From contig CAVYGN010000002.1 in NCBI GenBank assembly GCA_963768055.1, forward strand, positions 1,056,001 through 1,120,000: a DNA stretch of 64,000 nucleotides. The letters run 5' to 3'. The position numbers and the translations under genes are program-made. This document shows, in pieces, positions 3,167 to 60,634 of the stretch. This DNA is from an uncultured Spirochaetota bacterium. GTDB taxonomy: Bacteria; Spirochaetota; Brevinematia; Brevinematales; JAOACQ01. The notes under the pieces were generated by a model, which saw nothing but the letters and a program-made list of their open reading frames with translations, was not told the DNA's origin and did not search any database. The first letter of the stretch is position 1. The number at the start of each line of letters is the position of its first letter.

Positions 3167-4162
3167 ATGAGTAAAACCAGATTACTGACAGTTGTTTTTT
3201 TGTGTGTTGGGATAGTCACGGCATATGCGCAGCAGACAACAGCCCCCGATCAGGGCACCAATACAGCCGTTACTGCTTCTACAAATGAAATGACGACCAA
3301 TCAGGTTACAAGCGAGAAAGAGGTTGTTGCCACACAGGGACTAGTTTATAATGATGGAACGATGGATTATGTTTCTCCGGATATCAAGTTCAAAATCGAC
3401 GCTAAAGACGACCAGGGATCGGGCGTTAAGTCAATATCGGTGATGATTGACGATTCTCAATTCGGTATCTACGAGGATCCGATCGCGTTTTTTACTGACG
3501 GCAAGCATATGATCGCTTATAAAGCCGAGAATAATGTAGGAAATATTTCTCCGATCAAGTATTATGAGTTTATCCTCGATAAGAACCCTCCGAAGGTGTC
3601 ATTAACGAGCGATAAGAAAGTTGTAAAGATCAAGGATATTTCTTATGTCAGTTCAAATGTCAATTACGGTATCTATGCCGAGGACGATTTTTCAGGCGTT
3701 AAATGGATAAATTATAAACTTGACGACGGGCAGGACACTGTTTATGACAAGCCTTTCGTTCCTATTGTTGCCGACGGCCTTCATAAGATCACTTATAAAG
3801 CCTCCGATAACGTAGGCAATATAAGTCAGGATCAGACATACATGTTTTACATGGTTTTGAATCCGCCTACAGTGGCTTTTTCCGTCGATCCCGTATTTGA
3901 AACGAATGGCAACAAATACATATCGCCTTCAACTGTGATCAAGATCGTCGCTACAGACCCTGAAATAGCAGTTGCTAACATCAGTTATATAGTTGACGAC
4001 GGGGCGGCTATGGACTACCAGAGCCCCTTGAAGCTCAAGGGAGGCACCCATACTATAAAAGCTACCGCTACCGATCTTGTGGGGAACGTAAGCCAGCAGA
4101 CAAATATTACAGTTATTGTCGACGCCACTATTCCTGAAGCTGAACTTACTCCTACTAAATAA
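3167..4162 (+). CDS. secreted Ig-like repeat protein (OmpL47-type domains)
   Basis: Signal peptide; three repeats of A.D..SGV..I.Y..DDG....Y..P....G.H.I.YKA.DNVGN. Confidence 0.75.
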   Translation: MSKTRLLTVVFLCVGIVTAYAQQTTAPDQGTNTAVTASTNEMTTNQVTSEKEVVATQGLVYNDGTMDYVSPDIKFKIDAKDDQGSGVKSISVMIDDSQFGIYEDPIAFFTDGKHMIAYKAENNVGNISPIKYYEFILDKNPPKVSLTSDKKVVKIKDISYVSSNVNYGIYAEDDFSGVKWINYKLDDGQDTVYDKPFVPIVADGLHKITYKASDNVGNISQDQTYMFYMVLNPPTVAFSVDPVFETNGNKYISPSTVIKIVATDPEIAVANISYIVDDGAAMDYQSPLKLKGGTHTIKATATDLVGNVSQQTNITVIVDATIPEAELTPTK

Positions 4163-4186
4163 TAAGAATTATTAATTTTTCAAAAG

Positions 4187-4215
4187 AAGGGGCTGCCTGA
4201 AAAGGCGGCCCTTTA
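4187..4215 (+). terminator. intrinsic terminator
   Basis: GGGCTGCCT-GAAA-AGGCGGCCC hairpin followed by TTTT. Confidence 0.75.
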
Positions 4216-4355
4216 TTATTGATTGATTCTTTAATGAAGATTGTGACTTCAAGCGCAGTGTTTATCCTGAAAGGGTTTATCCCACCCATCAAAGGGTCCT
4301 CGAAATGGCATAGTCGGCGAATAACAAAAAGGCTGGCTTATTCCCTTACCCCGAA

Positions 4356-4620
4356 TTAAAGACAATAAGCAATTCATATGAAGTTAATTTTTTTATGCGT
4401 GTTATGAGCAAGCGTAAGAACTGCCGCTGAAAAACTGGAGCAAGCGCTTATCCAAGGCCGCTCGATGTATTTAATCATCTCATATTGATAAAAAAACTCA
4501 TTTTTTAATAAAAGAATTCCATCAGCGCTTGCAACAGTTTTGAAACGATGCAGTTCAAGCTTGCAAATTCAGCGCAGTAAAAAAATTAGCTTCATGAAAA
4601 GATCTGTATATTGTCTTTAA
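4356..4620. repeat. ~255-265 bp rod-like palindromic element, copy 1 (MITE or structured ncRNA)
   Basis: 12-bp perfect terminal IR TTAAAGACAATA/TATTGTCTTTAA, nested internal IRs, homologous to the reverse complement of 17970-18223. Confidence 0.85.
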
Positions 4621-5573
4621 TAAGGATCCCACTCGCAGTCGTAAAAATCTTCAGGCTTGGTCCTTTCCCACCTTCCATGGCCCAAAGAAAACCATTGATC
4701 GGGGTATTCCAGTATTATTCTCTCATACTGTTTATTAATCCATGTTATTATTTCGGCGCAATCTTTTTCTATATTGCCTGAGGGGGGAAAAGATACAGGT
4801 TCTTCATACCTTAAAATATATTTACCGTCGGGCCGCCTTATGCTGAAAGCCATTAAGATCGGCGCGCCGTATTGGAGATGGAATCTCGCGGGACCGTCGG
4901 CGGTAGCAGCGGGAAGTCCGAAGAAAGGAACGAAGATCGGCTTGAAATAGTATGTCTGGTCGTTAACGAAAGCGACGGCGCCTCCCTTTTTTATATGTTT
5001 CATTATTTTCTTAAGGTCCCCGATTTCATTATAAAAATTCTTCATCTTGGTATATTTTTCCCTGAAATTCTTAAGCCAGGCATCGGTGTAGGGATTGAAC
5101 TGCCTGTTTATGATGACCGCAACGTCCTTCCCGAGTAAAGCAGGGATCCCGCCGAGATAATCCCAGTTGCCCATATGTGCGGTAACGACGATCAATCCTT
5201 TGCCGAGGGCAAGAGCTTTTTCTACATTTTCAAAACCCTCGAGTACGGCGAATTTTTTGTAGGTTTTGATGCTCAGATCCCTTAGTTTAATAAATTCCAT
5301 ACTCCACCTGACAACTGACAAATATAGATTTTTAACGATTTCAACTTTCCTGGTTTCCGGCAGGGGGGGCTCTTTATAAATGACATCGAGACTCTTGAAA
5401 GAAAGCTTCTTGAAGCTCAAGGGCAGAACATAAAGAAATTTTGCGATCAGATCTCCTACAAAATATAAGATCCTTCTCGGTATAAGACTGAGCATAAAAG
5501 CAAGAGGAACGACGATAATATATTCCAGGATATATAAAAATCGCTGAAATCCGCCGATTTTACGCTTCGCCAA
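4617..5573 (-). CDS. lpxL: lipid A late acyltransferase (LpxL/HtrB family)
   Basis: HMGNWD (HX4D) motif, DQ...VPFFG..A, YPDQW; TTG start with AAAGGAG RBS. Confidence 0.8.
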   Translation of the reverse strand: MAKRKIGGFQRFLYILEYIIVVPLAFMLSLIPRRILYFVGDLIAKFLYVLPLSFKKLSFKSLDVIYKEPPLPETRKVEIVKNLYLSVVRWSMEFIKLRDLSIKTYKKFAVLEGFENVEKALALGKGLIVVTAHMGNWDYLGGIPALLGKDVAVIINRQFNPYTDAWLKNFREKYTKMKNFYNEIGDLKKIMKHIKKGGAVAFVNDQTYYFKPIFVPFFGLPAATADGPARFHLQYGAPILMAFSIRRPDGKYILRYEEPVSFPPSGNIEKDCAEIITWINKQYERIILEYPDQWFSLGHGRWERTKPEDFYDCEWDPY

Positions 5574-6271: not shown

Positions 6272-6368
6272 TAATTATTAAAAGATTTCACTGATATCAC
6301 AAATTATAATCTGTCCCATCTGTGAAATCTGTGGTTCCGATCCTTTTTCCGTTTATTCGTTTTAATAC

Positions 6369-17626: not shown

Positions 17627-17875
17627 TTATGCTCCTGCTTTACGCATTCTCCTGGCTATGTCCCTGACTATATTGCTGACCTTTGCCCCTTTATTAATCC
17701 ACTCGTCGTATTTTTGAAGATCGATATTGGTATTGCTGGAATCTTCGATCGGCTGGTAATGTCCAAGACAGTCAATATATGCCCCGTCACGCGGATCGCG
17801 GCTGTCCAGAACGACTATGCGGTAATAAGGCCTTTTGGATTTTCCAATTCTATTTAACCTGATATGAGCGGCCAA
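17627..17875 (-). CDS. rpsP: 30S ribosomal protein S16
   Basis: IRLNRIGK.KRPYYRIVV.DSR.PRDG; TTG start with GGGAGGA RBS. Confidence 0.96.
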   Translation of the reverse strand: MAAHIRLNRIGKSKRPYYRIVVLDSRDPRDGAYIDCLGHYQPIEDSSNTNIDLQKYDEWINKGAKVSNIVRDIARRMRKAGA

Positions 17876-17907: not shown

Positions 17908-17936
17908 ATTATAAATTTATGAGATGCCTTTGTCAA
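17908..17936 (-). promoter_or_regulatory. consensus sigma70 promoter of the rpsP operon
   Basis: TTGACA-17-TATAAT on the minus strand. Confidence 0.8.
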
Positions 17937-17969
17937 ATCTTTTGCCTGATTATGATTGGGGACCTCTCA

Positions 17970-18223
17970 AACAATATTATAATCTTTCTTGAACCAATTT
18001 TTTTATCTCACGGGATTCAGAAGCTTGAACTGTAGCGGCTCAAACGGCGGCAAGCGTTGATTGAATTCTTTTTAATAAAAAATATTTTTATTCTCTATAT
18101 GAATTGATTAAATACAATGACCGGTTAAGTATAAACGCCTGCTTTCGCCGTTTTTCGCCGGCAGTTCTATCGCTTCTTCATAAGGTTCGATAAAAAAATT
18201 GGTTCATAGAGCATAATATTGTT
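17970..18223. repeat. 254-bp rod-like palindromic element, copy 2
   Basis: 11-bp terminal IR AACAATATTAT/ATAATATTGTT, 18-bp perfect IR 17990-18007/18189-18206; homologous to 4356-4620 in the opposite orientation. Confidence 0.85.
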
Positions 18224-18261
18224 ATGAATTCGGTGAAAAAGGGTTAGAGCGACAGACTTCT

Positions 18262-19191
18262 TCAGGAAGGTATTTTCAATATATCCGCCGCGCTGCCGGC
18301 ATGGAAAAAATAGCCTGATTCCCCATGATAATAACGGTCGAGAGGCCGTGGAACCGGCTCTGTGAAAATGCTCATCAGTTTTTTTGCAAAAGAAACATCT
18401 ATCGTATGTCCGCCCTTAAATACAATGATAAAACCTTTTATATCGAAGTTAAGAAGGGCTAAACTGCCTATCAAATCAAGGATTTTATGCCTTACAGGTT
18501 CGTCATGAAAACGCGAGGAGTTAAGGATCTTGTTTTCCTTTTTGCTGAAAGCCTGAACATTGTCAAATGTAACGCCTCTGACGAGGCCGCTTTTCTGGTA
18601 ATTTTCAAGATCTTCCACAAAACCGAAGGTTCGGGCGCCGCAGATATCCTTTATGAAGATTTCGGTTGAAATTTCAGTATTGAAAGTCTGAGTTCCTATC
18701 GGCGAACCTGGAAAGGAAATCGTATAGCTTATCTTGAACCCGTTGTAAGGCAGGGCCACTATATATTTGTCCGAAAGGGTTGCCCAGATAGGATTTATAA
18801 TCATAAATTCCTCGCGGTCCCTGTCTTGTTCTATGACACCTGTTTTAATAAGTCCCTCCACGAAAAACTTTGCGCTTCCGTCAAGGATGGGTATTTCATT
18901 TGAACTGCATTCAATTATGCAGTTATCGATATGGCAGGCATATAGAGCCGATACAAGATGTTCAACCGTCTTTATTACCACCTTGCCGTTGGATATAGCT
19001 ATATTATTCTGAGTATCAACGATATTCTCAATGCTGTAAGGGATAAATTCTTTTGCAGACGGGGTTTTGCTTAAAAATAAAAGGCCGGTATCTTCCGGGG
19101 CGGGTTTAAGAGTTATCCGGCACTCATGCCCGCTATGCAGGCCTGTTCCCTTGAAATCTATGCTGGTTTTCAATGTACACTGTTTTCTCAT
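18262..19191 (-). CDS. lpxC: UDP-3-O-acyl-GlcNAc deacetylase
   Basis: GTGLHSG, TVEHL, EIPILDGSA, ARTFGF, EPVRHKILDLIG. Confidence 0.95.
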   Translation of the reverse strand: MRKQCTLKTSIDFKGTGLHSGHECRITLKPAPEDTGLLFLSKTPSAKEFIPYSIENIVDTQNNIAISNGKVVIKTVEHLVSALYACHIDNCIIECSSNEIPILDGSAKFFVEGLIKTGVIEQDRDREEFMIINPIWATLSDKYIVALPYNGFKISYTISFPGSPIGTQTFNTEISTEIFIKDICGARTFGFVEDLENYQKSGLVRGVTFDNVQAFSKKENKILNSSRFHDEPVRHKILDLIGSLALLNFDIKGFIIVFKGGHTIDVSFAKKLMSIFTEPVPRPLDRYYHGESGYFFHAGSAADILKIPS

Positions 19192-24768: not shown

Positions 24769-26133
24769 ATGTTTTATAAAATCCTTATCACTGCGGCCAT
24801 GTCGTTATGCATCATTTGCCCTGCCGTTTATTCCGAAGAGAGCGGGAAACGGGAAAAGGTCCTTGTTTTGCCTTTCCGCAACGAATCTGATACGAAACAG
24901 TATGTAAATTCCGGAATTTTCCAGGAAATTTTTTCGCGCTCTTTTTACTCTTTTATAAGCCTCCTTCCGGTTATAGAAGTGCCCGACATCGGGAAAACCC
25001 GAGGCTTAACGGCCTCATCCTCGAATATCCGGGATTTCGCCGACAGGGAACAGGCGAGGATAGTCATCTACGGCAGCTACCGTTTTACGGGTACGAAAAC
25101 GAATCCCAGGATCCAGGCCAGGCTTACAGCTTACGATGGTCCGGGCAGGACCAACATTTTCAATAAGACTTACGAAACGTCGACCGGGGCCGAGGTCTTC
25201 GACGATATAGACATGATGATATCCGAGGTCATGAAGGGGGCTCTTGATATCGATGTGAAAAACATCGCCGCCATACGCTTCAAGGATTTCAGGATCGCCG
25301 ACGAAACCTACCTGCTATATGTCAACGGCCGCCTCGTAGCGTCACCGTCAAACACGAACTTTTCTCTTATTCTGAAGATCATGCCCGAAACTAACTACTC
25401 TATCTTATTGAAGCAGAAAACCGGGGAAAGAACCGTCCTAAAGAAAGATGTAAGGCTCGGCCTGAACGGTTCGACCAATATAAGCTATTTCGGGTCCGGG
25501 TCCGTCAGGATAGGCGGTATTTATCTGAAAGACAGGCTGAAATCCTACGCCGTTTTTTTTGACGGAAGGCAATCGGCCGAGAACAGTTATTTAACGAACG
25601 TTTTGACCGATTACACCCACAATGTTTTGCTCGTTGAAAACCTTACAAATACGAATTATTCTACAAATTTCGACCTTTATGACAACCAGGAAGTTTCCTT
25701 AACGCCTGCTGCCGGCCCTTACGGCAGCCTTCATCTCGAACTTCTCACCCTCGATTTCGATATGGCAAGCCTTTTATTGGAGTATTTTCCCTTCGACCGC
25801 TATTTCTTTGTACAGGCAGGTTCGGGTTTCTATACAGTGAATGAATTCAATACTCAATATTATTATATATCCCCCCTCCTGGAAATAGGTTATTACTGGG
25901 TAGGGGATATGGCGTATAATTTCCGGATAGGGACGGGGATTATCGGCCGGGTAAACGTGGCCTATTCCCCGTCTGGCCCGGTCCCGGATGTGATTACCCC
26001 GGCGCTTTTCAACCTGGGCCTGTTCGTAAGCGTCGATTTCTATTTTATAACGGTCAGGCCGGAATGTTATTTTTACTATGAAAACGGAAAGGCGAACTTC
26101 ACGTACGCCGTCGCGGCCGGCATACACTTTTAA
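24769..26133 (+). CDS. exported protein with probable C-terminal beta-barrel
   Basis: Signal peptide, VLVLPF.N domain, amphipathic beta-strands ending in YAVAAGIHF. Confidence 0.6.
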   Translation: MFYKILITAAMSLCIICPAVYSEESGKREKVLVLPFRNESDTKQYVNSGIFQEIFSRSFYSFISLLPVIEVPDIGKTRGLTASSSNIRDFADREQARIVIYGSYRFTGTKTNPRIQARLTAYDGPGRTNIFNKTYETSTGAEVFDDIDMMISEVMKGALDIDVKNIAAIRFKDFRIADETYLLYVNGRLVASPSNTNFSLILKIMPETNYSILLKQKTGERTVLKKDVRLGLNGSTNISYFGSGSVRIGGIYLKDRLKSYAVFFDGRQSAENSYLTNVLTDYTHNVLLVENLTNTNYSTNFDLYDNQEVSLTPAAGPYGSLHLELLTLDFDMASLLLEYFPFDRYFFVQAGSGFYTVNEFNTQYYYISPLLEIGYYWVGDMAYNFRIGTGIIGRVNVAYSPSGPVPDVITPALFNLGLFVSVDFYFITVRPECYFYYENGKANFTYAVAAGIHF

Positions 26134-26194
26134 CGATGAACGGAAAGGCGAACTTCACGTACGCCGTCGCGGCCGGCATACACTTTTAACGATG
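26083..26194. repeat. perfect 56-bp tandem duplication
   Basis: AACGGAAAGGCGAACTTC...TTTTAACGATG at 26083-26138 and 26139-26194. Confidence 0.95.
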
Positions 26195-26203
26195 AGGGGT
26201 ATT

Positions 26204-27241
26204 ATGTATAAAAGTATATCTGTATTATTTAAAATCGTTCCAATGATCCTGATATTCGTCCTTTATTCATGCGATATGTTCAGCCCCCCGGGTTTATCCG
26301 ACAAGCTGAAAAATTATACCGGTAGTTCCTCGTCGAGCTCTTCGTCTTCTCCATCCTCTCCGCCAGGCTCGACATGGTGGGCCTCCAACCCTATTCCAAG
26401 CGCTCAAAACGACTGGGATTCAGTCGCCTTCGATGGGAACGGCCGTTTTGTAGCGATAGCACGTATGGCGCAAGTAATATATTCAATCGACGGTCAAAAC
26501 TGGACGCTTTCACCCGGTACCCTCACAGGTGGCGATTGGGAATCGATTGCATACGGGAATGGCGTTTTTGTTGCGGTTCCCTGGGGTACAATTCCTGAAT
26601 ATTCAAGCGACGGCGGGATAACCTGGACGCCTTCAACCGGATACTTTATGTATAGTTTCGTTTGGTCGGTGGCCTTCGGGAACGGACGCTTTGTCGTGGT
26701 CGGCAATGCCGCCCCACAGTTAACGTATTATTCAAGCGACGGGAATAGTTGGACGAGTTCAGTAACCCCCCCTGACCCTATTGCATGGGCGCCGGCAACC
26801 TACGGGAACGGGCGTTTTGTCACTGTTAACACTAGCGGTGCTATGGCTGGGCATTCAGTAGACGGGAATACCTGGATTACCGGCAGCACACTCCCGGTCA
26901 GCACCAACTGGAATTCAGTGGCTTATGGGAATGGCGTTTTTGTAGCGGTCGCCGGCCCAAGCTCAATTGCTGCAACTTCGCCAGACGGGATAACCTGGAC
27001 CCAGCAGGCCCTCCCAGGTTGGGACAACTGGTGGTCTGTAACCTATGGTAATGGTGTTTTTGTAGCCGTTGCCGGCGGCTGGAACTATGTCAGTGCAAAC
27101 GCCGCGACATCAACGGACGGGGTACACTGGACACTCAGAGCCCTTCCGTTTTCCGCCCACTGGTATTCTGTTGTTGCCGGGAACGGCATTTTTGTTACGG
27201 TCGCAAGCAACAGTACCATAGCGGCTTTTTCGACAAATTGA
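26204..27241 (+). CDS. lipoprotein with Ser-rich linker and BNR/Asp-box-like beta-propeller repeats
   Basis: VLYSC lipobox; about 7 repeats of W.SVAYGNG.FVAV...S.DG..W; GAGGGG RBS before ATG 26204. Confidence 0.8.
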   Translation: MYKSISVLFKIVPMILIFVLYSCDMFSPPGLSDKLKNYTGSSSSSSSSSPSSPPGSTWWASNPIPSAQNDWDSVAFDGNGRFVAIARMAQVIYSIDGQNWTLSPGTLTGGDWESIAYGNGVFVAVPWGTIPEYSSDGGITWTPSTGYFMYSFVWSVAFGNGRFVVVGNAAPQLTYYSSDGNSWTSSVTPPDPIAWAPATYGNGRFVTVNTSGAMAGHSVDGNTWITGSTLPVSTNWNSVAYGNGVFVAVAGPSSIAATSPDGITWTQQALPGWDNWWSVTYGNGVFVAVAGGWNYVSANAATSTDGVHWTLRALPFSAHWYSVVAGNGIFVTVASNSTIAAFSTN

Positions 27242-30392: not shown

Positions 30393-30408
30393 TTTTAAAA
30401 TGGAATGT

Positions 30409-30678
30409 AACCACAGATTACACGGATTTCACTGATATTTTCTGTGAAATTAGTTTGAATTTTTTGTTGTAATTGTCTAATCATAATATGTAAAAATCAG
30501 GTGAAAATAAATCGATAAATTATTTCATATTCTTTGAGTCCTTTACATTTTTTTCATTTCTTATGATTAAAAGACTTTAAGAACGTAACGACTATAAAAA
30601 ATCTAAATTCTTTAATTATTAATGATTGCACAGATAATTCCAAAATAATAATCTGTGCCATCTGAGAAATCTGTGGTT
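30409..30678. repeat. second CACAGAT-repeat-bounded AT-rich element, no clear ORF
   Basis: AACCACAGATTACACGGATTTCACTGAT ... ATCTGTGCCATCTGAGAAATCTGTGGTT. Confidence 0.7.
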
Positions 30679-30738
30679 TCGTACCCCGTTTGCCAAGTTT
30701 AAAATGTGAGATTATTATTTATATATAAGGAGGCATAT

Positions 30739-37764: not shown

Positions 37765-39234
37765 CTACTTCAGCCTGACAAGCACCTCGTTTTCATCCCC
37801 GATTACCTGCGGCGTCTGTTCGAAAGCCCTGATTATATTCGCGCGTTCCGGGACCGTCTTATCCAGGTATTCCCTCATCTCGGCCAGGGTGATATATTTA
37901 TCCCCCTTCTTATCCGCTCCTCCGGAAAGGCCCTTCAGGAAATAGTAGGTGAAAAGCCCGTGCCCCATCTGGGGATACCACACCGAGTAGTCGGAGCCCG
38001 AAGTCGCCGCGTAGATCGATCCTATGTTTTCAGAGATCAGGGGATTATCCACCACCATATTGACCGGGGAAATATTTTCCACAAGCCTTCCGCCCCCCGA
38101 TTCGCCGCTGAAGCAGGATTCGAGGATCACGACCACATGTTTAACTCCGATCCCCTTGAGTCTGGCGATATTGGCGTATAAGAGCCTCAGGGGATATGCG
38201 GTTTGTTCCACATAATCCTTATTCATATCCACCGGAGCTATATATCCCTTGTGGTCCTTCAACCCGGGTATCCCGTGCCCGCTGTAATAAATATAGACCT
38301 TTGACGGCTTGTAAAGCTGGACGTTCCTGTAAATTATCGACCTTGACGGCTCGTTTTCAGTTCCAAAAAGCCCCAGCATATCGGCAAGGGTTATATTTTC
38401 TTTCATAACGATCTGCTCCGCGGGGATCCTGAAGGTGTTCTCGAAATAGAGTTTCATCACTCTCGCGTCCTGGAGGGCGTAATCAACAGCCGGAATGCCG
38501 TTCCTGTAGTCGCGGTTGCCTACCACCACGGCTATCGCATTATTCTGATCAGAATACCCTTTCGGTATCTTTGTGTCCACATCCACGCTGAGATTGGTTT
38601 CTTTTACGATATTTGTTCCGTCCTTTACTGAAAAGTTATCGGTTGTATTTAAATTTTTCTTTTCGCTTTCATTCTGGATCTGTTGCGCGTTCATAAATAA
38701 ATTTTGTATCTCCGGGTTTTTTCCTATAACAGCATAAGTTAAAGCCGTACTACCGGTATTATCCTTTATGTTGACATCGGCTTTAGCATTTATCAATGCT
38801 AAAGTTGTGGCCAGGTCCCCATTTTTAACAGCTAAAATCAAAGCCGTCTTGCCTTCATCATTCATCGCGTTGATTTCTGCCCCTGCCTTGATCAAAACCA
38901 ATACTGTCTTTAAATACCCATTGTCAGCCGCGTGCATCAATGCAGTCCAGCCTTTTCTATCCACTGCATTGACATCGGCCCCGGCTTCGATCAATGCTAT
39001 AATCGCTTCTGAGTTGTCTGTTTCTGATTCCGCTGCCGCTTCTATCAAAGCCGTAAAGCGGTTAGATCCATAATGCTTGTTAACATCACCCTTGTAATTT
39101 TTAATAAATTTTATATCGTCCCTTACTGCCGCATACCCTAAAGGATCTCTGGTTAACATTCTAACAAGACCGCATGAAGTAATAAGGGTGAAAGCCGGTA
39201 TTGCGAGCAGGATAAAAATCGACAGCTTTTTCAT
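37765..39234 (-). CDS. ankyrin-repeat + caspase-family (peptidase C14) lipoprotein, copy C
   Basis: LITSC lipobox, ankyrin repeats (G.TAL..A), YYSGHG and ILESCFSG dyad, HGLFTY, QTP. Confidence 0.88.
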   Translation of the reverse strand: MKKLSIFILLAIPAFTLITSCGLVRMLTRDPLGYAAVRDDIKFIKNYKGDVNKHYGSNRFTALIEAAAESETDNSEAIIALIEAGADVNAVDRKGWTALMHAADNGYLKTVLVLIKAGAEINAMNDEGKTALILAVKNGDLATTLALINAKADVNIKDNTGSTALTYAVIGKNPEIQNLFMNAQQIQNESEKKNLNTTDNFSVKDGTNIVKETNLSVDVDTKIPKGYSDQNNAIAVVVGNRDYRNGIPAVDYALQDARVMKLYFENTFRIPAEQIVMKENITLADMLGLFGTENEPSRSIIYRNVQLYKPSKVYIYYSGHGIPGLKDHKGYIAPVDMNKDYVEQTAYPLRLLYANIARLKGIGVKHVVVILESCFSGESGGGRLVENISPVNMVVDNPLISENIGSIYAATSGSDYSVWYPQMGHGLFTYYFLKGLSGGADKKGDKYITLAEMREYLDKTVPERANIIRAFEQTPQVIGDENEVLVRLK

Positions 39235-39275
39235 ATGACGATCCTCCTTTTTGAAAACGTTTGAGGATTTGATAT

Positions 39276-40931
39276 TTATCTCAGCCTTGCCAGGACCTCG
39301 TTTTCATCTCCGATAACCTGCGGGGTCTGTTCGAAAGCCCTGATAATATTCGCGCGTTCCGGGACCGTCTTGTCCAGGTATTCCCTCATCTCGGCCAGGG
39401 TGATATATTTATCACCCTTTTTATCCGCATATCCGCTCAGACCTTTCAGGAAATAGTAGGTAAACAGCCCATGCCCCATCTGGGGGTACCATACGGAGTA
39501 GTCGGAACCCGAAGTCGCCGCGTAGATCGATCCTATATTTTCCGAGATCAGGGGATTATCCACCACCATATTGACCGGAGAGATATTCTCCACCAGCCTG
39601 CCGCCGCCTGATTCGCCGCTGAAACAGGATTCGAGGATCACTACTATATGCTTAACTCCAATATTTTTGAGTCTGGCGATATTGGCGTATAACAGCCTCA
39701 GGGGATATGCCGTTTGTTCCACGTAATCCCTGTTCACATCTACAGGTGCTATATATCCCCTGTGGTCTTTAAGCCCCGGTATTCCGTGCCCGCTGTAGTA
39801 AATATAGACCTTTGACGGCTTGTAAAGCTGGACGTTCCTGTAAATTGTCGACCTTGACGGCTCGTTTTCAGTCCCGAAAAGCCCCAGCATATCGGCGAGG
39901 GTCATATTTTCTTTCATAAGGATCTGCTCCGCAGGGATCCTGAAAGTATTCTCAAAATAGAGTTTCATAACCCTTGCGTCCTGGAGGGCGTAATCAACAA
40001 CCGGAATGCCGTTCCTGTAGTCCCGGTTGCCTATAACAACGGCTATCGCGTTTTTCTGAACCGAATACCCCTTCGGTATTTTCGTGTCTACATCAGAGCT
40101 GAGATTGGTTTCTTTTACGATATTTGTTCCGTCCTTTACTGAAGAGTTGTTGGCTTTATTTAAATTTTTCTTTTTGCTCTCATTCTGGATCTGTTGTGCG
40201 TTTATTAATAAAAATACTATCTTGGCATTATTATTTTGAGTGGCGTATATTAAAGCCGTACTACCGGAATTATCCTTTATATTGACGTCAGCCCCTGCCA
40301 GTATCAATGAACTAACTTCTTCCGTTTGTTCTTTATTCTTAGCCGCATATATTAAAGCCGTACTACCGGAATTATCCTTTATATTGACATCAGCCCCTGC
40401 CAGTATCAATGAACTAACTTCTTCCGTTTGTTCTTTATTCTTAGCCGCATATATTAAAGCCGTACTGCCGGAATTATCCTTTATATTGACGTCAGCTATA
40501 TCGATTAATGCTAAAGTTACACTCGATTCCCCATTTTCAGCAGCTATCATCAAAGCCGTCTTGCCTTCATTATTCACCACGTTGATTTTGGCCCCCGCAA
40601 CAATTAAAATTGATACTGTGTTTATGTACCCTTTTTCAGAAGCGTGCATTAATGCTGTCCAGCCGTTTTTATCCACAGCATTGACATCGGCACCGGCCTC
40701 GATCAAAGCCTTAATCCCTTTCGTGCTTTCAGTGCCATCTGCAGCCTCTATCAAAGCTGTATAATCCTCAGGTCCATAATGCTTGTTGATATCACCCTTA
40801 TAAATTTTAATATACTCGATATTGCCCCTTACTGCTGCAAACCCTAAAGGAATTCTTGTCAACATACTACAAGAAGTAATTAACAGGAAAGGCTGGATTA
40901 CAAGCAGTATAAAAATAAGCAGCTTTTTCAC
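39276..40931 (-). CDS. ankyrin-repeat + caspase-family lipoprotein, copy B
   Basis: GTG start, LITSC lipobox, expanded ankyrin array, YYSGHG / ILESCFSG. Confidence 0.88.
   Translation of the reverse strand: MKKLLIFILLVIQPFLLITSCSMLTRIPLGFAAVRGNIEYIKIYKGDINKHYGPEDYTALIEAADGTESTKGIKALIEAGADVNAVDKNGWTALMHASEKGYINTVSILIVAGAKINVVNNEGKTALMIAAENGESSVTLALIDIADVNIKDNSGSTALIYAAKNKEQTEEVSSLILAGADVNIKDNSGSTALIYAAKNKEQTEEVSSLILAGADVNIKDNSGSTALIYATQNNNAKIVFLLINAQQIQNESKKKNLNKANNSSVKDGTNIVKETNLSSDVDTKIPKGYSVQKNAIAVVIGNRDYRNGIPVVDYALQDARVMKLYFENTFRIPAEQILMKENMTLADMLGLFGTENEPSRSTIYRNVQLYKPSKVYIYYSGHGIPGLKDHRGYIAPVDVNRDYVEQTAYPLRLLYANIARLKNIGVKHIVVILESCFSGESGGGRLVENISPVNMVVDNPLISENIGSIYAATSGSDYSVWYPQMGHGLFTYYFLKGLSGYADKKGDKYITLAEMREYLDKTVPERANIIRAFEQTPQVIGDENEVLARLR
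40246..40496. repeat. near-perfect 102-bp tandem repeat (about 2.5 copies) encoding a 34-aa ankyrin unit
   Basis: TATATTAAAGCCGTACT recurs at 40246, 40348 and 40450. Confidence 0.92.
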
Positions 40932-40972
40932 ATGATAATCCTCCTTTTTGAATACTTTTGAGGATTTGATAT

Positions 40973-42424
40973 TTATCTCAGCCTGACCAGTACTTCGTTT
41001 TCATCTCCGATTATCTGCGGCGTCTGTTCGAATGCCCGGATTATATTCGCGCGTTCGGGGACCGTCTTATCCAGGTATTCCCTCATCTCGGCCAGGGTGA
41101 TATTTTTATCCCCCCTTTTATCAGCATATCCGCTTAAGCCCTTCAGGAAATAGTAGGTGAAAAGCCCATGGCCCATCTGGGGATACCATACCGAGTAATC
41201 GGAACCAGAAGTCGCAGCGTAGATCGATCCTATGTTTTCCGAGATCAGGGGATTATCCACTACCATATTGACCGGTGAAATATTCTCCACCAGCCTGCCG
41301 CCGCCCGATTCGCCGCTGAAGCAGGATTCCAGGATCACGACTGCATGTTTAACTCCGATATCCTTGAGTCTTGCGATATTGGCGTATAAGAGCCTAAGGG
41401 GATATGCGGTTTGTTCCACATAATCCTTATTCATATCCACCGGAGCTATATATCCCTTGTGGTCCTTCAGCCCGGGTATCCCATGGCCGCTGTAGTAAAT
41501 ATAGACCCTGGTGGGTTTGTAAAGCTGGACGGTCCTGTAAATTGTAGCACTTGACGGCTCATTTTCAGTTCCGAAAAGCCCGAACGTATCGGCAAGGGTT
41601 ATATTTTCCTTGATAACAATATGCTCTGCGGGGATCCTGAAAGTAGTCTCAAAATAAAGTTTCATCACTCTCGCGTCCTGGAGCGCGTAATCCACTGCCG
41701 GAATGCCGTTCCTGTAGTCGCGGTTTCCTACCACCACGGCAATAGCGTTATTTTGGTCCGAATACCCTTTCGGTATCTTTGTGTCCACATCCACGCTGAG
41801 ATTGGGTTTGTTTACCATTTTCGTATCGTTGTGTAATGTGGAGTTGTCGCTTGTATTTTTGTTCTCATCCTGGATCTGTTGCGCATTCATTAATAAATTT
41901 TGTATCCCCGGATTTTTACCTATGACAGCATAAGTTAAAGCCGTACTGCCCGTATAATCCTTTATGTTGACATCGGCCTTAGCATTTATCAATGCTAAAG
42001 TTATGGCCAGGTCCCCATTTTTAACAGCTAAAATCAAAGCAGTCTGGCCTTCATGATCTATCGTGTTGATTTCGGCCCCAGCCTTGATCAAAACCAATAC
42101 TGGGTTTATGTACCCTTTGTCGGCTGCATGCATCAAAGCCGTCCAGACGTTTTTATCCACTGCATTAATATCGGCACCGTTATCGATCAATGCTTTAATC
42201 CCTTCTGTTTTGTCCGAGCTATCTGCAGCCTCTATCAAAGCTGTATAATCCTCAGGTCCATAATGCTTGTTGATATCACCCTTATAATTTTTAATATACT
42301 CGATATTGCCTCTGACTGCTGCATATCCTAAAGAATCTCTAGTCAACATATTATAAAGGCCGCATGAGGTACTTAGCGTGAGAGCCGGGATTGCTAGCAG
42401 GATAAAAATAAATAGTTTTTTCAT
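40973..42424 (-). CDS. ankyrin-repeat + caspase-family lipoprotein, copy A
   Basis: ATG 42424 with AAGGAGG RBS (MKKLFIF), LSTSC lipobox, YYSGHG / ILESCFSG. Confidence 0.88.
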   Translation of the reverse strand: MKKLFIFILLAIPALTLSTSCGLYNMLTRDSLGYAAVRGNIEYIKNYKGDINKHYGPEDYTALIEAADSSDKTEGIKALIDNGADINAVDKNVWTALMHAADKGYINPVLVLIKAGAEINTIDHEGQTALILAVKNGDLAITLALINAKADVNIKDYTGSTALTYAVIGKNPGIQNLLMNAQQIQDENKNTSDNSTLHNDTKMVNKPNLSVDVDTKIPKGYSDQNNAIAVVVGNRDYRNGIPAVDYALQDARVMKLYFETTFRIPAEHIVIKENITLADTFGLFGTENEPSSATIYRTVQLYKPTRVYIYYSGHGIPGLKDHKGYIAPVDMNKDYVEQTAYPLRLLYANIARLKDIGVKHAVVILESCFSGESGGGRLVENISPVNMVVDNPLISENIGSIYAATSGSDYSVWYPQMGHGLFTYYFLKGLSGYADKRGDKNITLAEMREYLDKTVPERANIIRAFEQTPQIIGDENEVLVRLR

Positions 42425-42600
42425 AAGACAATCCTCCTTTTTGAAAAAAGATTGAGGACATAATCTAATAAGTTTATCACGTTTCCGGATAACTTTCAAA
42501 TCGATTTTGCAGTACCAGCCGAACGGAATAAAAAATTGTCTTTTTTTTATCCTGCACTTTAGAATATGATCGGTTTAAAATCATATGAAAGGGTAGAATA

Positions 42601-58820: not shown

Positions 58821-60515
58821 TCAATTAAGGGCCCTGCTTAAAATCAGTTTACCCGGCCTGTCTATCATTTCCAGATTAGATGATCCCGGACTTACCATTG
58901 GAAGAGCGTAAGTATTCTCTGAAACAGGAACATTTATAAAGATTGGAAAAGGGGATTCCAGGGCAGCAGCTAATATTTTCATTGGATTTCCTGCTGCGTA
59001 CAGGTCTATGCTTTTTATACCGAAGCCCTCTCCTATAGCAATAAAGTCAGGATTTTTCACAAATTTTGAAGCAATAAAGTGTTTTTCATAAAAAAGGTCC
59101 TGCTGCTGCCTGACAAGCCCGAGGTTCCCGTTATTCAACAGTATTATAGTAATATTAAGGCCGCATTCCGATAATGTCGCGAGTTCCTGTATGTTCATCA
59201 ATATTGAACCGTCACCGGTAAAACAAACTACTTTTTTATCGGGATTTGACAAAGCTGCGCCGATAGCTGCCGGCAGTCCGAAACCCATTGTCCCCAATCC
59301 GCCGGATGTGAGAAAGGTCCGCGGTCTTTTAAATGGGTACCACTGTGCAACCCACATCTGGTGCTGGCCGACATCTGTAGTTATTATTGCAGTATCGGGG
59401 ACTAAGGATCCTGTTTCTCTGATAATATTCTCGGGATGAAATATGTCGTTTTCATGATGCCCCCTATCAGGATATTCCTGCTTTAAGAAAATTAATTCCT
59501 CGTTCCAGACGGTCCTGTCATCGGCAGGAACAAGGGGTAAAATCCCGGACAGTATAGATTTTATATCTCCGTTGATCGTGCAATCGGCTTTTTTATTTTT
59601 ATCGATTTCAGAATCATCTATATCGATATGAATAATTTCTGCCCGGCGGCAGAACTGTGAAACTTTACCTGTGGCACGGTCATTAAACCTTGTTCCGCAT
59701 GCTATAATTAGATCGGCCCTCTCTGTAGAGTTGTTCGCGGTTTTAGAGCCATGCATGCCTATCATGCCTATGAATAATTCATCGCCGCCGGGGTATGCCC
59801 CCAATCCCATCAATGTTGTCACAATTGGTATGGAGTTCTTATGTGCCAGTTCTTTTAATAATCCTCCTGCCCCGGAGTGGATAACACCGCCCCCAATAAG
59901 GAATAGCGGCCTTTCAGATTTTCTGATCATTAAGGCGGCTTTTTCAATTGAGTTTTTATCAAATTTAAGATCGGGTATTTGCGGTGTTTCGGTTATTTTG
60001 TCATCCCATTCAACCTCTTCAGTCTGTATGTCTTTGGGAACGTCTATCAGGACGGGCCCAGGCCTTCCGGATGAAGCGATCCTGAATGCTTCGACTATGA
60101 CCTCAGGAAGGTCTTTTGCCGACCTTACAAGGAAATTGTGTTTTGTAATAGGGGTCGATAGCCCGTATGCATCGACCTCCTGAAAAGCGTCAGTTCCAAT
60201 TAAATTCAAAGGGACTTGCCCCGTAATCGCGATAAGGGGAACAGAATCCATTTTGGCGTCGGCGATCGCGGTAAGAAGATTCGTAACCCCGGGGCCGGAT
60301 GTGGCAAAGCATACGGCTGTTTTCCCGGTTGAGCGGGCCATCCCATGAGCGATAAAACCGGCGGCCTGTTCATGTCTGGCAAGGATATGTCTTATACTGC
60401 TCCTGTATAAAGCATCATACAATGGCAGATTCGAACCTCCGGGAATACCGGAAATAATCCGGATCCCGAGCTTTTCGAGGATCCTGATAATAATGTCAGC
60501 GCCTCTTGATTTCAT
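58821..60515 (-). CDS. ilvB: acetolactate synthase large subunit
   Basis: RHEQ, TSGPG, GTDAFQE, TDVGQHQMW, GDGS...N ThDP motif. Confidence 0.93.
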   Translation of the reverse strand: MKSRGADIIIRILEKLGIRIISGIPGGSNLPLYDALYRSSIRHILARHEQAAGFIAHGMARSTGKTAVCFATSGPGVTNLLTAIADAKMDSVPLIAITGQVPLNLIGTDAFQEVDAYGLSTPITKHNFLVRSAKDLPEVIVEAFRIASSGRPGPVLIDVPKDIQTEEVEWDDKITETPQIPDLKFDKNSIEKAALMIRKSERPLFLIGGGVIHSGAGGLLKELAHKNSIPIVTTLMGLGAYPGGDELFIGMIGMHGSKTANNSTERADLIIACGTRFNDRATGKVSQFCRRAEIIHIDIDDSEIDKNKKADCTINGDIKSILSGILPLVPADDRTVWNEELIFLKQEYPDRGHHENDIFHPENIIRETGSLVPDTAIITTDVGQHQMWVAQWYPFKRPRTFLTSGGLGTMGFGLPAAIGAALSNPDKKVVCFTGDGSILMNIQELATLSECGLNITIILLNNGNLGLVRQQQDLFYEKHFIASKFVKNPDFIAIGEGFGIKSIDLYAAGNPMKILAAALESPFPIFINVPVSENTYALPMVSPGSSNLEMIDRPGKLILSRALN

Positions 60516-60540
60516 ATTGGTCTCCTTTTAACGGTTAAAA

Positions 60541-60615
60541 ATAAAAACCCCCTCCGTTGACCGGCCGGAGGGGGTTAAAAATAAAAAACCCCTGCCGGCT
60601 TACAGCCGGCAGGGG
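60541..60615 (-). terminator. two tandem intrinsic terminators of the ilvB attenuator
   Basis: 12-bp stem 60589-60615 and 11-bp stem 60546-60576, each followed by a U-tract on the minus strand. Confidence 0.85.
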
Positions 60616-60634
60616 CATTATAAATTAATACATG

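Follow-up and report, generated by a model that had tools for sequence, protein, structure and literature searches.

The window, by which is meant the whole stretch of 64,000 nucleotides analysed here, holds two homologous copies of an imperfect palindrome, both of them intergenic and each situated just 3' of a gene of lipid A synthesis. The features at the two sites, with their positions in the window, are the following.

3167..4162, + strand: OmpL47-like gene, upstream of copy 1, with its own terminator-like hairpin
4187..4214, + strand: terminator-like hairpin of the OmpL47-like gene, from a + strand scan, with T-rich runs on both sides
4351..4620, + strand: copy 1, whole repeat, CCGAA and then a 265-nt imperfect palindrome (4356-4620)
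4356..4448, + strand: left arm of copy 1, 93 nt
4449..4523, + strand: AT-rich central loop of copy 1, 75 nt
4524..4620, + strand: right arm of copy 1, 97 nt, of which the final 4 nt are TTAA
4617..5573, - strand: LpxL-family lipid A acyltransferase gene (Pfam Lip_A_acyltrans, 121.6 bits; NCBIfam equivalogs under cut-off)
17627..17875, - strand: rpsP, downstream of copy 2
17908..17936, - strand: consensus promoter of rpsP, TTGACA-17-TATAAT, a 12/12 match about 30 nt downstream of copy 2
17965..18233, - strand: copy 2, whole repeat, CCGAA (18233-18229) and then the palindrome (18228-17965)
18134..18228, - strand: left arm of copy 2, 95 nt
18059..18133, - strand: central loop of copy 2, 75 nt
17965..18058, - strand: right arm of copy 2, 94 nt
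18262..19191, - strand: lpxC (TIGR00325, 236.2 bits; cut-off 187.25)

Domain matches to the LpxL-family gene and to lpxC bear out the statement of the preliminary description that each copy is situated 3' of a lipid A gene, and the overlap that it reported between copy 1 and the lpxL stop is exact, the lpxL-like stop codon (4617-4619) falling inside the terminal TTAA of copy 1 (4617-4620). The idea that the element was the source of the lpxL-like C-terminus was ruled out, as the ending ...EDFYDCEWDPY and the length of 318 aa are common to homologues down to 50% identity; the C-terminus is thus native and intact, and copy 1 abuts the gene without replacing its end. Copy 1 sits between convergent genes (OmpL47-like on the + strand, lpxL-like on the - strand), and because T-rich runs lie on both sides of the hairpin at 4187-4214, this hairpin may, judging from the sequence, also end lpxL transcripts that have passed copy 1. 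At the second site, the stop codon of lpxC lies 28 nt upstream of copy 2, and no separate terminator-like site was found between lpxC and the rpsP promoter. Transcription from lpxL would enter copy 1 in antisense orientation and transcription from lpxC would enter copy 2 in sense orientation, so that gene context favours no single RNA strand. Judged by the flanking proteins, the host is an uncultured spirochaete close to Brevinematales/Brevinematia: the best non-self match of LpxC is 79% identical, the LpxC proteins of related Brevinematia genomes are 60-79% identical, and the named matches come from Brevinematales/Brevinematia MAGs and Thermospira. As to the neighbouring genes themselves, the product of 3167-4162 (+) carries OmpL47-type beta-barrel domains (domain model 147 bits, cut-off 40; equivalog 139 bits, under its cut-off of 250), which otherwise belong to a Leptospira surface-protein family and are found here in a Brevinematales-related genome, and the gene holds internal repeats of about 58 nt. 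The 12/12 sigma-70 promoter at 17908-17936 (-) heads an operon of rpsP, a KH-domain protein gene, rimM, trmD and rplS.

The homology of the two sites in opposite orientation, as first described, is reproduced by blastn of copy 1 against the window, which aligns the copies at 73.5% identity over 234 nt (E 1.1e-29). In a global alignment the cores of 265 and 264 nt are identical at 191/270 columns (~71%, or ~29% divergence), and their lengths are equal within 1 nt despite this divergence. Both copies are poorer in G+C (33.6% in copy 1 and 33.3% in copy 2) than the window (42.3%). The central loop had also been described as conserved, and the two loops are indeed identical at 58/76 columns, with TGTATTTAATCA and AAAAGAATTC of the copy 1 loop both present in that of copy 2. 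An nhmmer profile built from both copies found no further copy in the 64-kb window, the next match having an E value of 0.13, and the terms "dispersed" and "multicopy" used earlier therefore rest on just two copies within 64 kb. The copies appear to be old and diverged. An identity of ~71% is low for a recently active family. None of the 59 window ORFs matches a transposase family in Pfam, and 14/59 are without any Pfam match.

Repeats of other kinds also occur in the window. At 30402-30685, upstream of an AhpC/TSA gene, lies an unrelated intergenic element of 284 bp with 51-nt terminal inverted repeats (71% complementary), rich in ACCACAGAT/ATCTGTGG motifs, and the same motifs occur in a shorter hairpin at 6283-6345, upstream of a YebC-family gene. 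Three tandem paralogues at 37765-42499 (-), which encode ankyrin repeats together with a caspase-like Peptidase_C14 domain, share long DNA stretches that are 80-90% identical. An exact 56-nt tandem duplication is found at 26083-26194, where the ORFs 24769-26133 and 26078-27241 overlap, both of them without a Pfam match; it could reflect a frameshift splitting one gene or an assembly artefact.

To the left of the palindrome, homology runs 5 nt further (CCGAA; anchored flank test, P = 0.007), and to its right there is no further homology (P = 0.44 in the same test). Because the edges of homology agree with those of the palindrome, a discrete element fits better than a random segmental duplication. 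The terminal inverted repeats are paired at 12/12 positions in copy 1 and to 88% over 16 nt in copy 2. When the alignment is divided into blocks of 25 columns, those at the left end have an identity of 0.64 and 0.56, those at the right end 0.56 and 0.60, and those in the centre 0.64-0.80; the ends are the least conserved part of the element and the centre is the most conserved. TTAA stands at both ends of copy 1, and TTCA and TGAG stand at the equivalent places of copy 2. A target duplication is ambiguous, because TTAA reads the same on both strands and could be part of the inverted repeat, and because copy 2 has TTCA/TGAG. That the right flank of copy 2 keeps a remnant of the 3' end of lpxL was considered and rejected, as the anchored flank similarity is at chance (P = 0.44) and tblastn returned nothing.

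Each copy is predicted to fold into a single rod of about 90 base pairs. The minimum free energy (MFE) fold of copy 1 has -90.9 kcal/mol and 87 pairs (z -9.0; shuffles -50.9 +/- 4.4) and that of copy 2 has -90.6 kcal/mol and 93 pairs (z -10.3; shuffles -45.9 +/- 4.3), with 0/200 shuffles as stable in either case. When the + strand was folded in sliding windows of 270 nt with a step of 135 nt, the copies ranked 1st and 3rd in stability among 476 windows after G+C correction. The second rank fell to 60346-60615 (-105.7 kcal/mol, z -4.2), which covers the beginning of a TPP-enzyme gene (58821-60515, -) together with upstream intergenic DNA and is without an Rfam match; a 19-nt hairpin of 84% complementarity lies at 60582-60622, likewise upstream of the TPP-enzyme gene. 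Alignment of each left arm to the reverse complement of its own right arm gave, in copy 1, 73 Watson-Crick pairs, 3 G·U, 2 A·C, 13 transversion mismatches and 8 gap columns, and in copy 2, 73 Watson-Crick pairs, 2 G·U, 0 A·C, 13 transversion mismatches and 13 gap columns. The imperfect palindrome initially seen in each copy is in this way recovered by folding, and the individual stems listed for it were all found in the sequence and among the listed inverted repeats.

Pairing in the rod has been kept against sequence drift. Between the copies, 76/88 arm positions map consistently, and these comprise 50 unchanged Watson-Crick pairs, 10 double changes from one Watson-Crick pair to another, 4 other double changes, 10 one-sided changes and 2 unchanged mismatches. 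The 10 compensated doubles compare with 1.6 expected if the arms changed independently, and at least 10 were seen in 0/100,000 simulations, which assume 19 changes per arm and a 1-in-3 chance that a double change restores the pair. In a MAFFT alignment, the two MFE folds have 44 column pairs in common, of which 11 are changed on both sides, a count that is favoured by the derivation of the MFE structure from the same two sequences; when partners were slid by 1-3 columns as a control for this count, 0-1 double-sided changes remained. RNAalifold gives 10/50 pairs compensated. As the mapping with its simulation, the slid-partner control and the RNAalifold counts agree, the compensation is real, and the compensatory base changes of the preliminary description, now counted at 10-11 double-sided changes against ~1.6 expected under independence, are upheld. 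Mismatches common to both copies occupy 6/76 of the consistently mapped positions, from which it follows that the common ancestor was already an imperfect palindrome.

Compensation within a DNA palindrome cannot, in itself, tell RNA-level from DNA-level causes, since a hairpin needed for the movement of the element, or repair templated by the hairpin, would give the same pattern; RNA-level selection is accordingly not demonstrated. One purely DNA-level account is that a functionless palindrome underwent a local or ancient duplication, with its pairing kept by hairpin-templated repair (template switching) and not by selection. It would be in keeping with this account that the two arms of one copy resemble each other more closely (73/99 and 73/101) than equivalent arms across copies do (66/97 and 67/97), as in concerted evolution, crossed arm comparisons being the least alike (61/99 and 61/102); that 4/10 of the compensated pairs are of transversion type; and that the two strands are about equally stable with DNA parameters (-54.6/-53.1 kcal/mol in copy 1 and -50.2/-50.0 kcal/mol in copy 2). 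However, templated repair should erase shared internal loops and bulges, yet both copies keep them at equal places, and a functionless duplication would lead one to expect neither a length constant to 1 nt at ~29% divergence nor edges of homology that are the ends of the palindrome. The account is on balance improbable.

Strand signals on the RNA side are slight. The sense strand is somewhat more stable than the antisense strand when folded as RNA, with MFE values of -90.9/-87.8 kcal/mol in copy 1 and -90.6/-82.1 kcal/mol in copy 2, that is, by 3.1 and 8.5 kcal/mol. The G-U bias claimed earlier for one strand has the stated direction but is weak, as G·U exceeds A·C by 3:2 in copy 1, 2:0 in copy 2 and 5:2 jointly, which is not significant. 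No conserved ORF is present in either copy, as had been noted; the frames between stops are no longer than 64 aa and differ between the copies, and none is kept as protein. A comparison with Rfam, which had been proposed as a check, returned 0 matches at gathering thresholds in the 64 kb, and around either copy at E <= 10 the best scores were 14-21 bits against thresholds of 60-140, so that the element is without a match to a known family. No terminator-like site was called at either copy. The T7 run sits within the 5' arm and not 3' of the stem, and because no U-tract follows the rod in either direction, the rod is not an intrinsic terminator. The earlier conclusion that structure is under selection, and that the element is hence a new ncRNA or a MITE, stands as regards the maintained pairing, whereas the step from structure under selection to a new ncRNA goes beyond the evidence.

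A stand-alone, rod-shaped small RNA gene with at least two paralogues, transcribed from its own promoter on the strand richer in G·U, would agree with the better folding of the sense strand and with the conserved loop sequence, and, being without an Rfam match, it would be undescribed. Against it, no sigma-70-like promoter site was found in 4000-5000 on either strand, and on the sense strand of copy 2 the only such sites, in the copy or shortly before it, are those inside lpxC; no terminator follows either copy; and the wobble bias is not significant. A motif of 19 specified bases at the loop-stem junction, common to both copies and searched in 185,579 species genomes, occurred only at chance level: it matched 13 loci in unrelated MAGs, the window's own genome being absent from the set of matches, and these resemble the element over only 21-33 nt around the motif; they are chance matches, of which ~4 are expected for 19 specified bases. 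A stand-alone small RNA gene is regarded as highly improbable. As to further copies of the element in general, searching copy 1 by blastn (word size 11; E <= 0.01 for E. coli) against plasmids, phages and E. coli genomes (5,426 genomes, 20,395 records) gave no match, and phmmer with the 64-aa read-through frame, the longest stop-free frame across copy 1, gave 0 matches in 1.84 billion representatives.

Alternatively, whatever gave rise to it, the rod could have been retained by host selection as a cis-acting RNA structure 3' of lipid A genes, within the untranslated regions of lpxL and lpxC, where it would govern how stable the two messages are or how they are processed. Such a role could explain why both copies stand directly 3' of lipid A genes, why the centre and loop are conserved better than the ends, why the internal loops lie at equal places (6/76 mapped positions being mismatched in both copies), and why length has been held to 1 nt and pairing has been compensated while the sequence diverged by ~29%; the lack of a separate terminator-like site between lpxC and the rpsP promoter would also accord with it. 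However, because the copies are oppositely oriented, the conserved loop would be read as two complementary RNAs and not as one motif, the 5:2 ratio of G·U to A·C is not significant, and the rod, with no U-tract past it either way, does not act as an intrinsic terminator. With two copies, moreover, the link to lpx genes could be chance, for which a rough post-hoc estimate is ~0.02. Host selection of a cis-acting RNA is thus a possible but unlikely explanation.

A further scenario follows from the opposite orientations, by which the two 3' untranslated regions would be mutually complementary: the lpxL (antisense) and lpxC (sense) mRNAs may pair through the element, coupling two lipid A messages. 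The conserved 75-nt loops, at which contact would begin, share perfectly complementary blocks of 12 and 10 bases, a loop-loop duplex is predicted at -46.1 kcal/mol (-15.5 +/- 3.6 in 300 shuffles), and the full co-fold reaches -195.7 kcal/mol with 201 intermolecular pairs, against -178.4 kcal/mol for two separate hairpins. If such pairing were true, a long duplex open to RNase III would tie together the decay of early and late lipid A messages. However, these co-fold energies and this orientation are what any pair of inverted homologues would show, and the modelled coupling has a very slim chance of being correct.

The remaining candidates are repeats that spread as DNA. REP and REPIN sequences are G+C-rich palindromes of 20-40 bp, single or in inverted doublets, that go with a RAYT transposase; the element here has AT-rich arms of 93-97 nt, and no Y1/RAYT-like ORF occurs in the window. 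Miniature inverted-repeat elements (MITEs) are closer. Those of prokaryotes are described as shorter than 500 bp, AT-rich and intergenic, with terminal inverted repeats and stable stem-loop transcripts, and as having direct repeats that fade with age and, in some families, a location mostly in 3' untranslated regions (PMC10969869). The element here is likewise AT-rich and intergenic, measures 265-270 nt and so remains below ~500 bp, has no internal transposase gene, and carries terminal inverted repeats, the whole unit being palindromic. However, its termini are not better conserved than its interior, as they are in type II MITEs, and this is the opposite of what a MITE recognised by its ends would be expected to show. 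Poorly conserved termini, an ambiguous target duplication, an identity of ~71% and the position of both copies beside lipid A genes, where a random inserter would land twice only rarely, all speak against a classic MITE. As the features are MITE-like and yet depart from the classic type at these points, an old, ERIC-like family is favoured over a classic MITE.

The explanation preferred here, to which about an even chance is given, is that the two copies represent a new family of old MITE/ERIC-like palindromic repeats, most of which are by now fixed and transcribed along with genes as part of 3' untranslated regions. This model proposes that the element spread as DNA, mobilised in trans by a transposase whose gene lies at another place in the genome. 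Insertion may have been at TA/TTAA, and the TTAA on either side of copy 1 would then regenerate the lpxL-like stop codon. Both sites are harmless for insertion, one lying between convergent genes and the other between a stop codon and the next promoter, and the presence of a second, unrelated element with terminal inverted repeats at 30402-30685 indicates that the genome tolerates such repeats. If only those lineages that kept the foldback stayed competent for movement or were tolerated, the pattern of compensation would result. That pairing is maintained with no significant strand bias, and that folds with DNA parameters are equal on the two strands, also speaks for this model. Against it, besides the points that separate the element from a classic MITE, the 64 kb contain two copies only, the searches of species genomes, plasmids, phages, E. 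coli genomes and proteins gave no further copy, and none of the 59 window ORFs matches a transposase family. Transcripts of lpxL and lpxC would probably include the copies as their 3' untranslated regions, in antisense and sense orientation, respectively, and the long, imperfect double-stranded rod may alter the stability of the 3' end or offer a site for RNase III, as is reported for ERIC and Correia repeats.

Several known systems resemble this model in part. ERIC/IRU sequences, imperfect palindromes of 127 bp in Enterobacteriaceae, are likewise non-coding, intergenic and transcribed and have diverged copies. Their pairing, too, is kept by compensatory changes. At 3' gene ends, the RNA hairpin of ERIC alters message decay, with an RNase E effect reported in Yersinia (PMC10969869). 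The element here differs in being twice as long (265-270 nt), in belonging to another phylum and in having been seen in two copies, and blastn (word size 11, E <= 0.01) does not match it to any of the 5,426 E. coli genomes, in which ERIC occurs. Correia elements of Neisseria carry promoters and an IHF site and occur in more than 100 near-identical copies; here, by contrast, there is no promoter-like site at copy 1 (none in 4000-5000 on either strand) or in copy 2, the ends are poorly conserved and two copies are seen. A TA-type target, as in Correia, is possible for the element here as well. Correia elements (NEMIS) are small, with terminal inverted repeats, and their long-hairpin transcript is cleaved by RNase III (PMC10969869). 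QMITE2 of Coxiella burnetii is an AT-rich repeat of ~190 bp with a stable stem-loop transcript, located mostly in 3' untranslated regions; numerous copies are degenerate and no longer have their direct repeats (PMC10969869). The likeness is one of description, its host is unrelated, and QMITE2 has 78 copies in one genome. An identity with Coxiella QMITE, entertained on account of the 42% G+C and the lpx genes, was dropped, as the flanking proteins are spirochaetal and near Brevinematales.

Among spirochaetes, stem-loops of Borrelia that derive from IS200/IS605 are reported to lie at the 3' ends of lipoprotein genes and to be transposase-independent, one type being conserved with compensatory base-pair changes (PMC3184786). 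They share with the element here a spirochaete host, a place at 3' gene ends and compensated pairing. However, the Borrelia stem-loops are single hairpins of 32-51 nt that are plasmid-borne and come from known IS ends, whereas the rod here is 265 nt long, chromosomal and without a known parent IS. A non-exhaustive check of the literature brought up no apparent palindromic repeat family for Brevinema, Brevinematales or Brevinematia, and no apparent miniature inverted-repeat element for Leptospira.

Should the family be confirmed genome-wide, it would be the first described palindromic repeat family in Brevinematia spirochaetes. In practical terms, rods of this kind behind genes can alter how long messages last and can mislead both assembly and annotation. 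The present case also serves as a warning that covariation in DNA palindromes is not proof of a structured RNA. If confirmed, it would offer a clean case of hairpin pairing preserved over ~29% divergence, and such a case would help to separate selection on the element, selection by the host and templated repair as the causes behind "covariation" in DNA palindromes.
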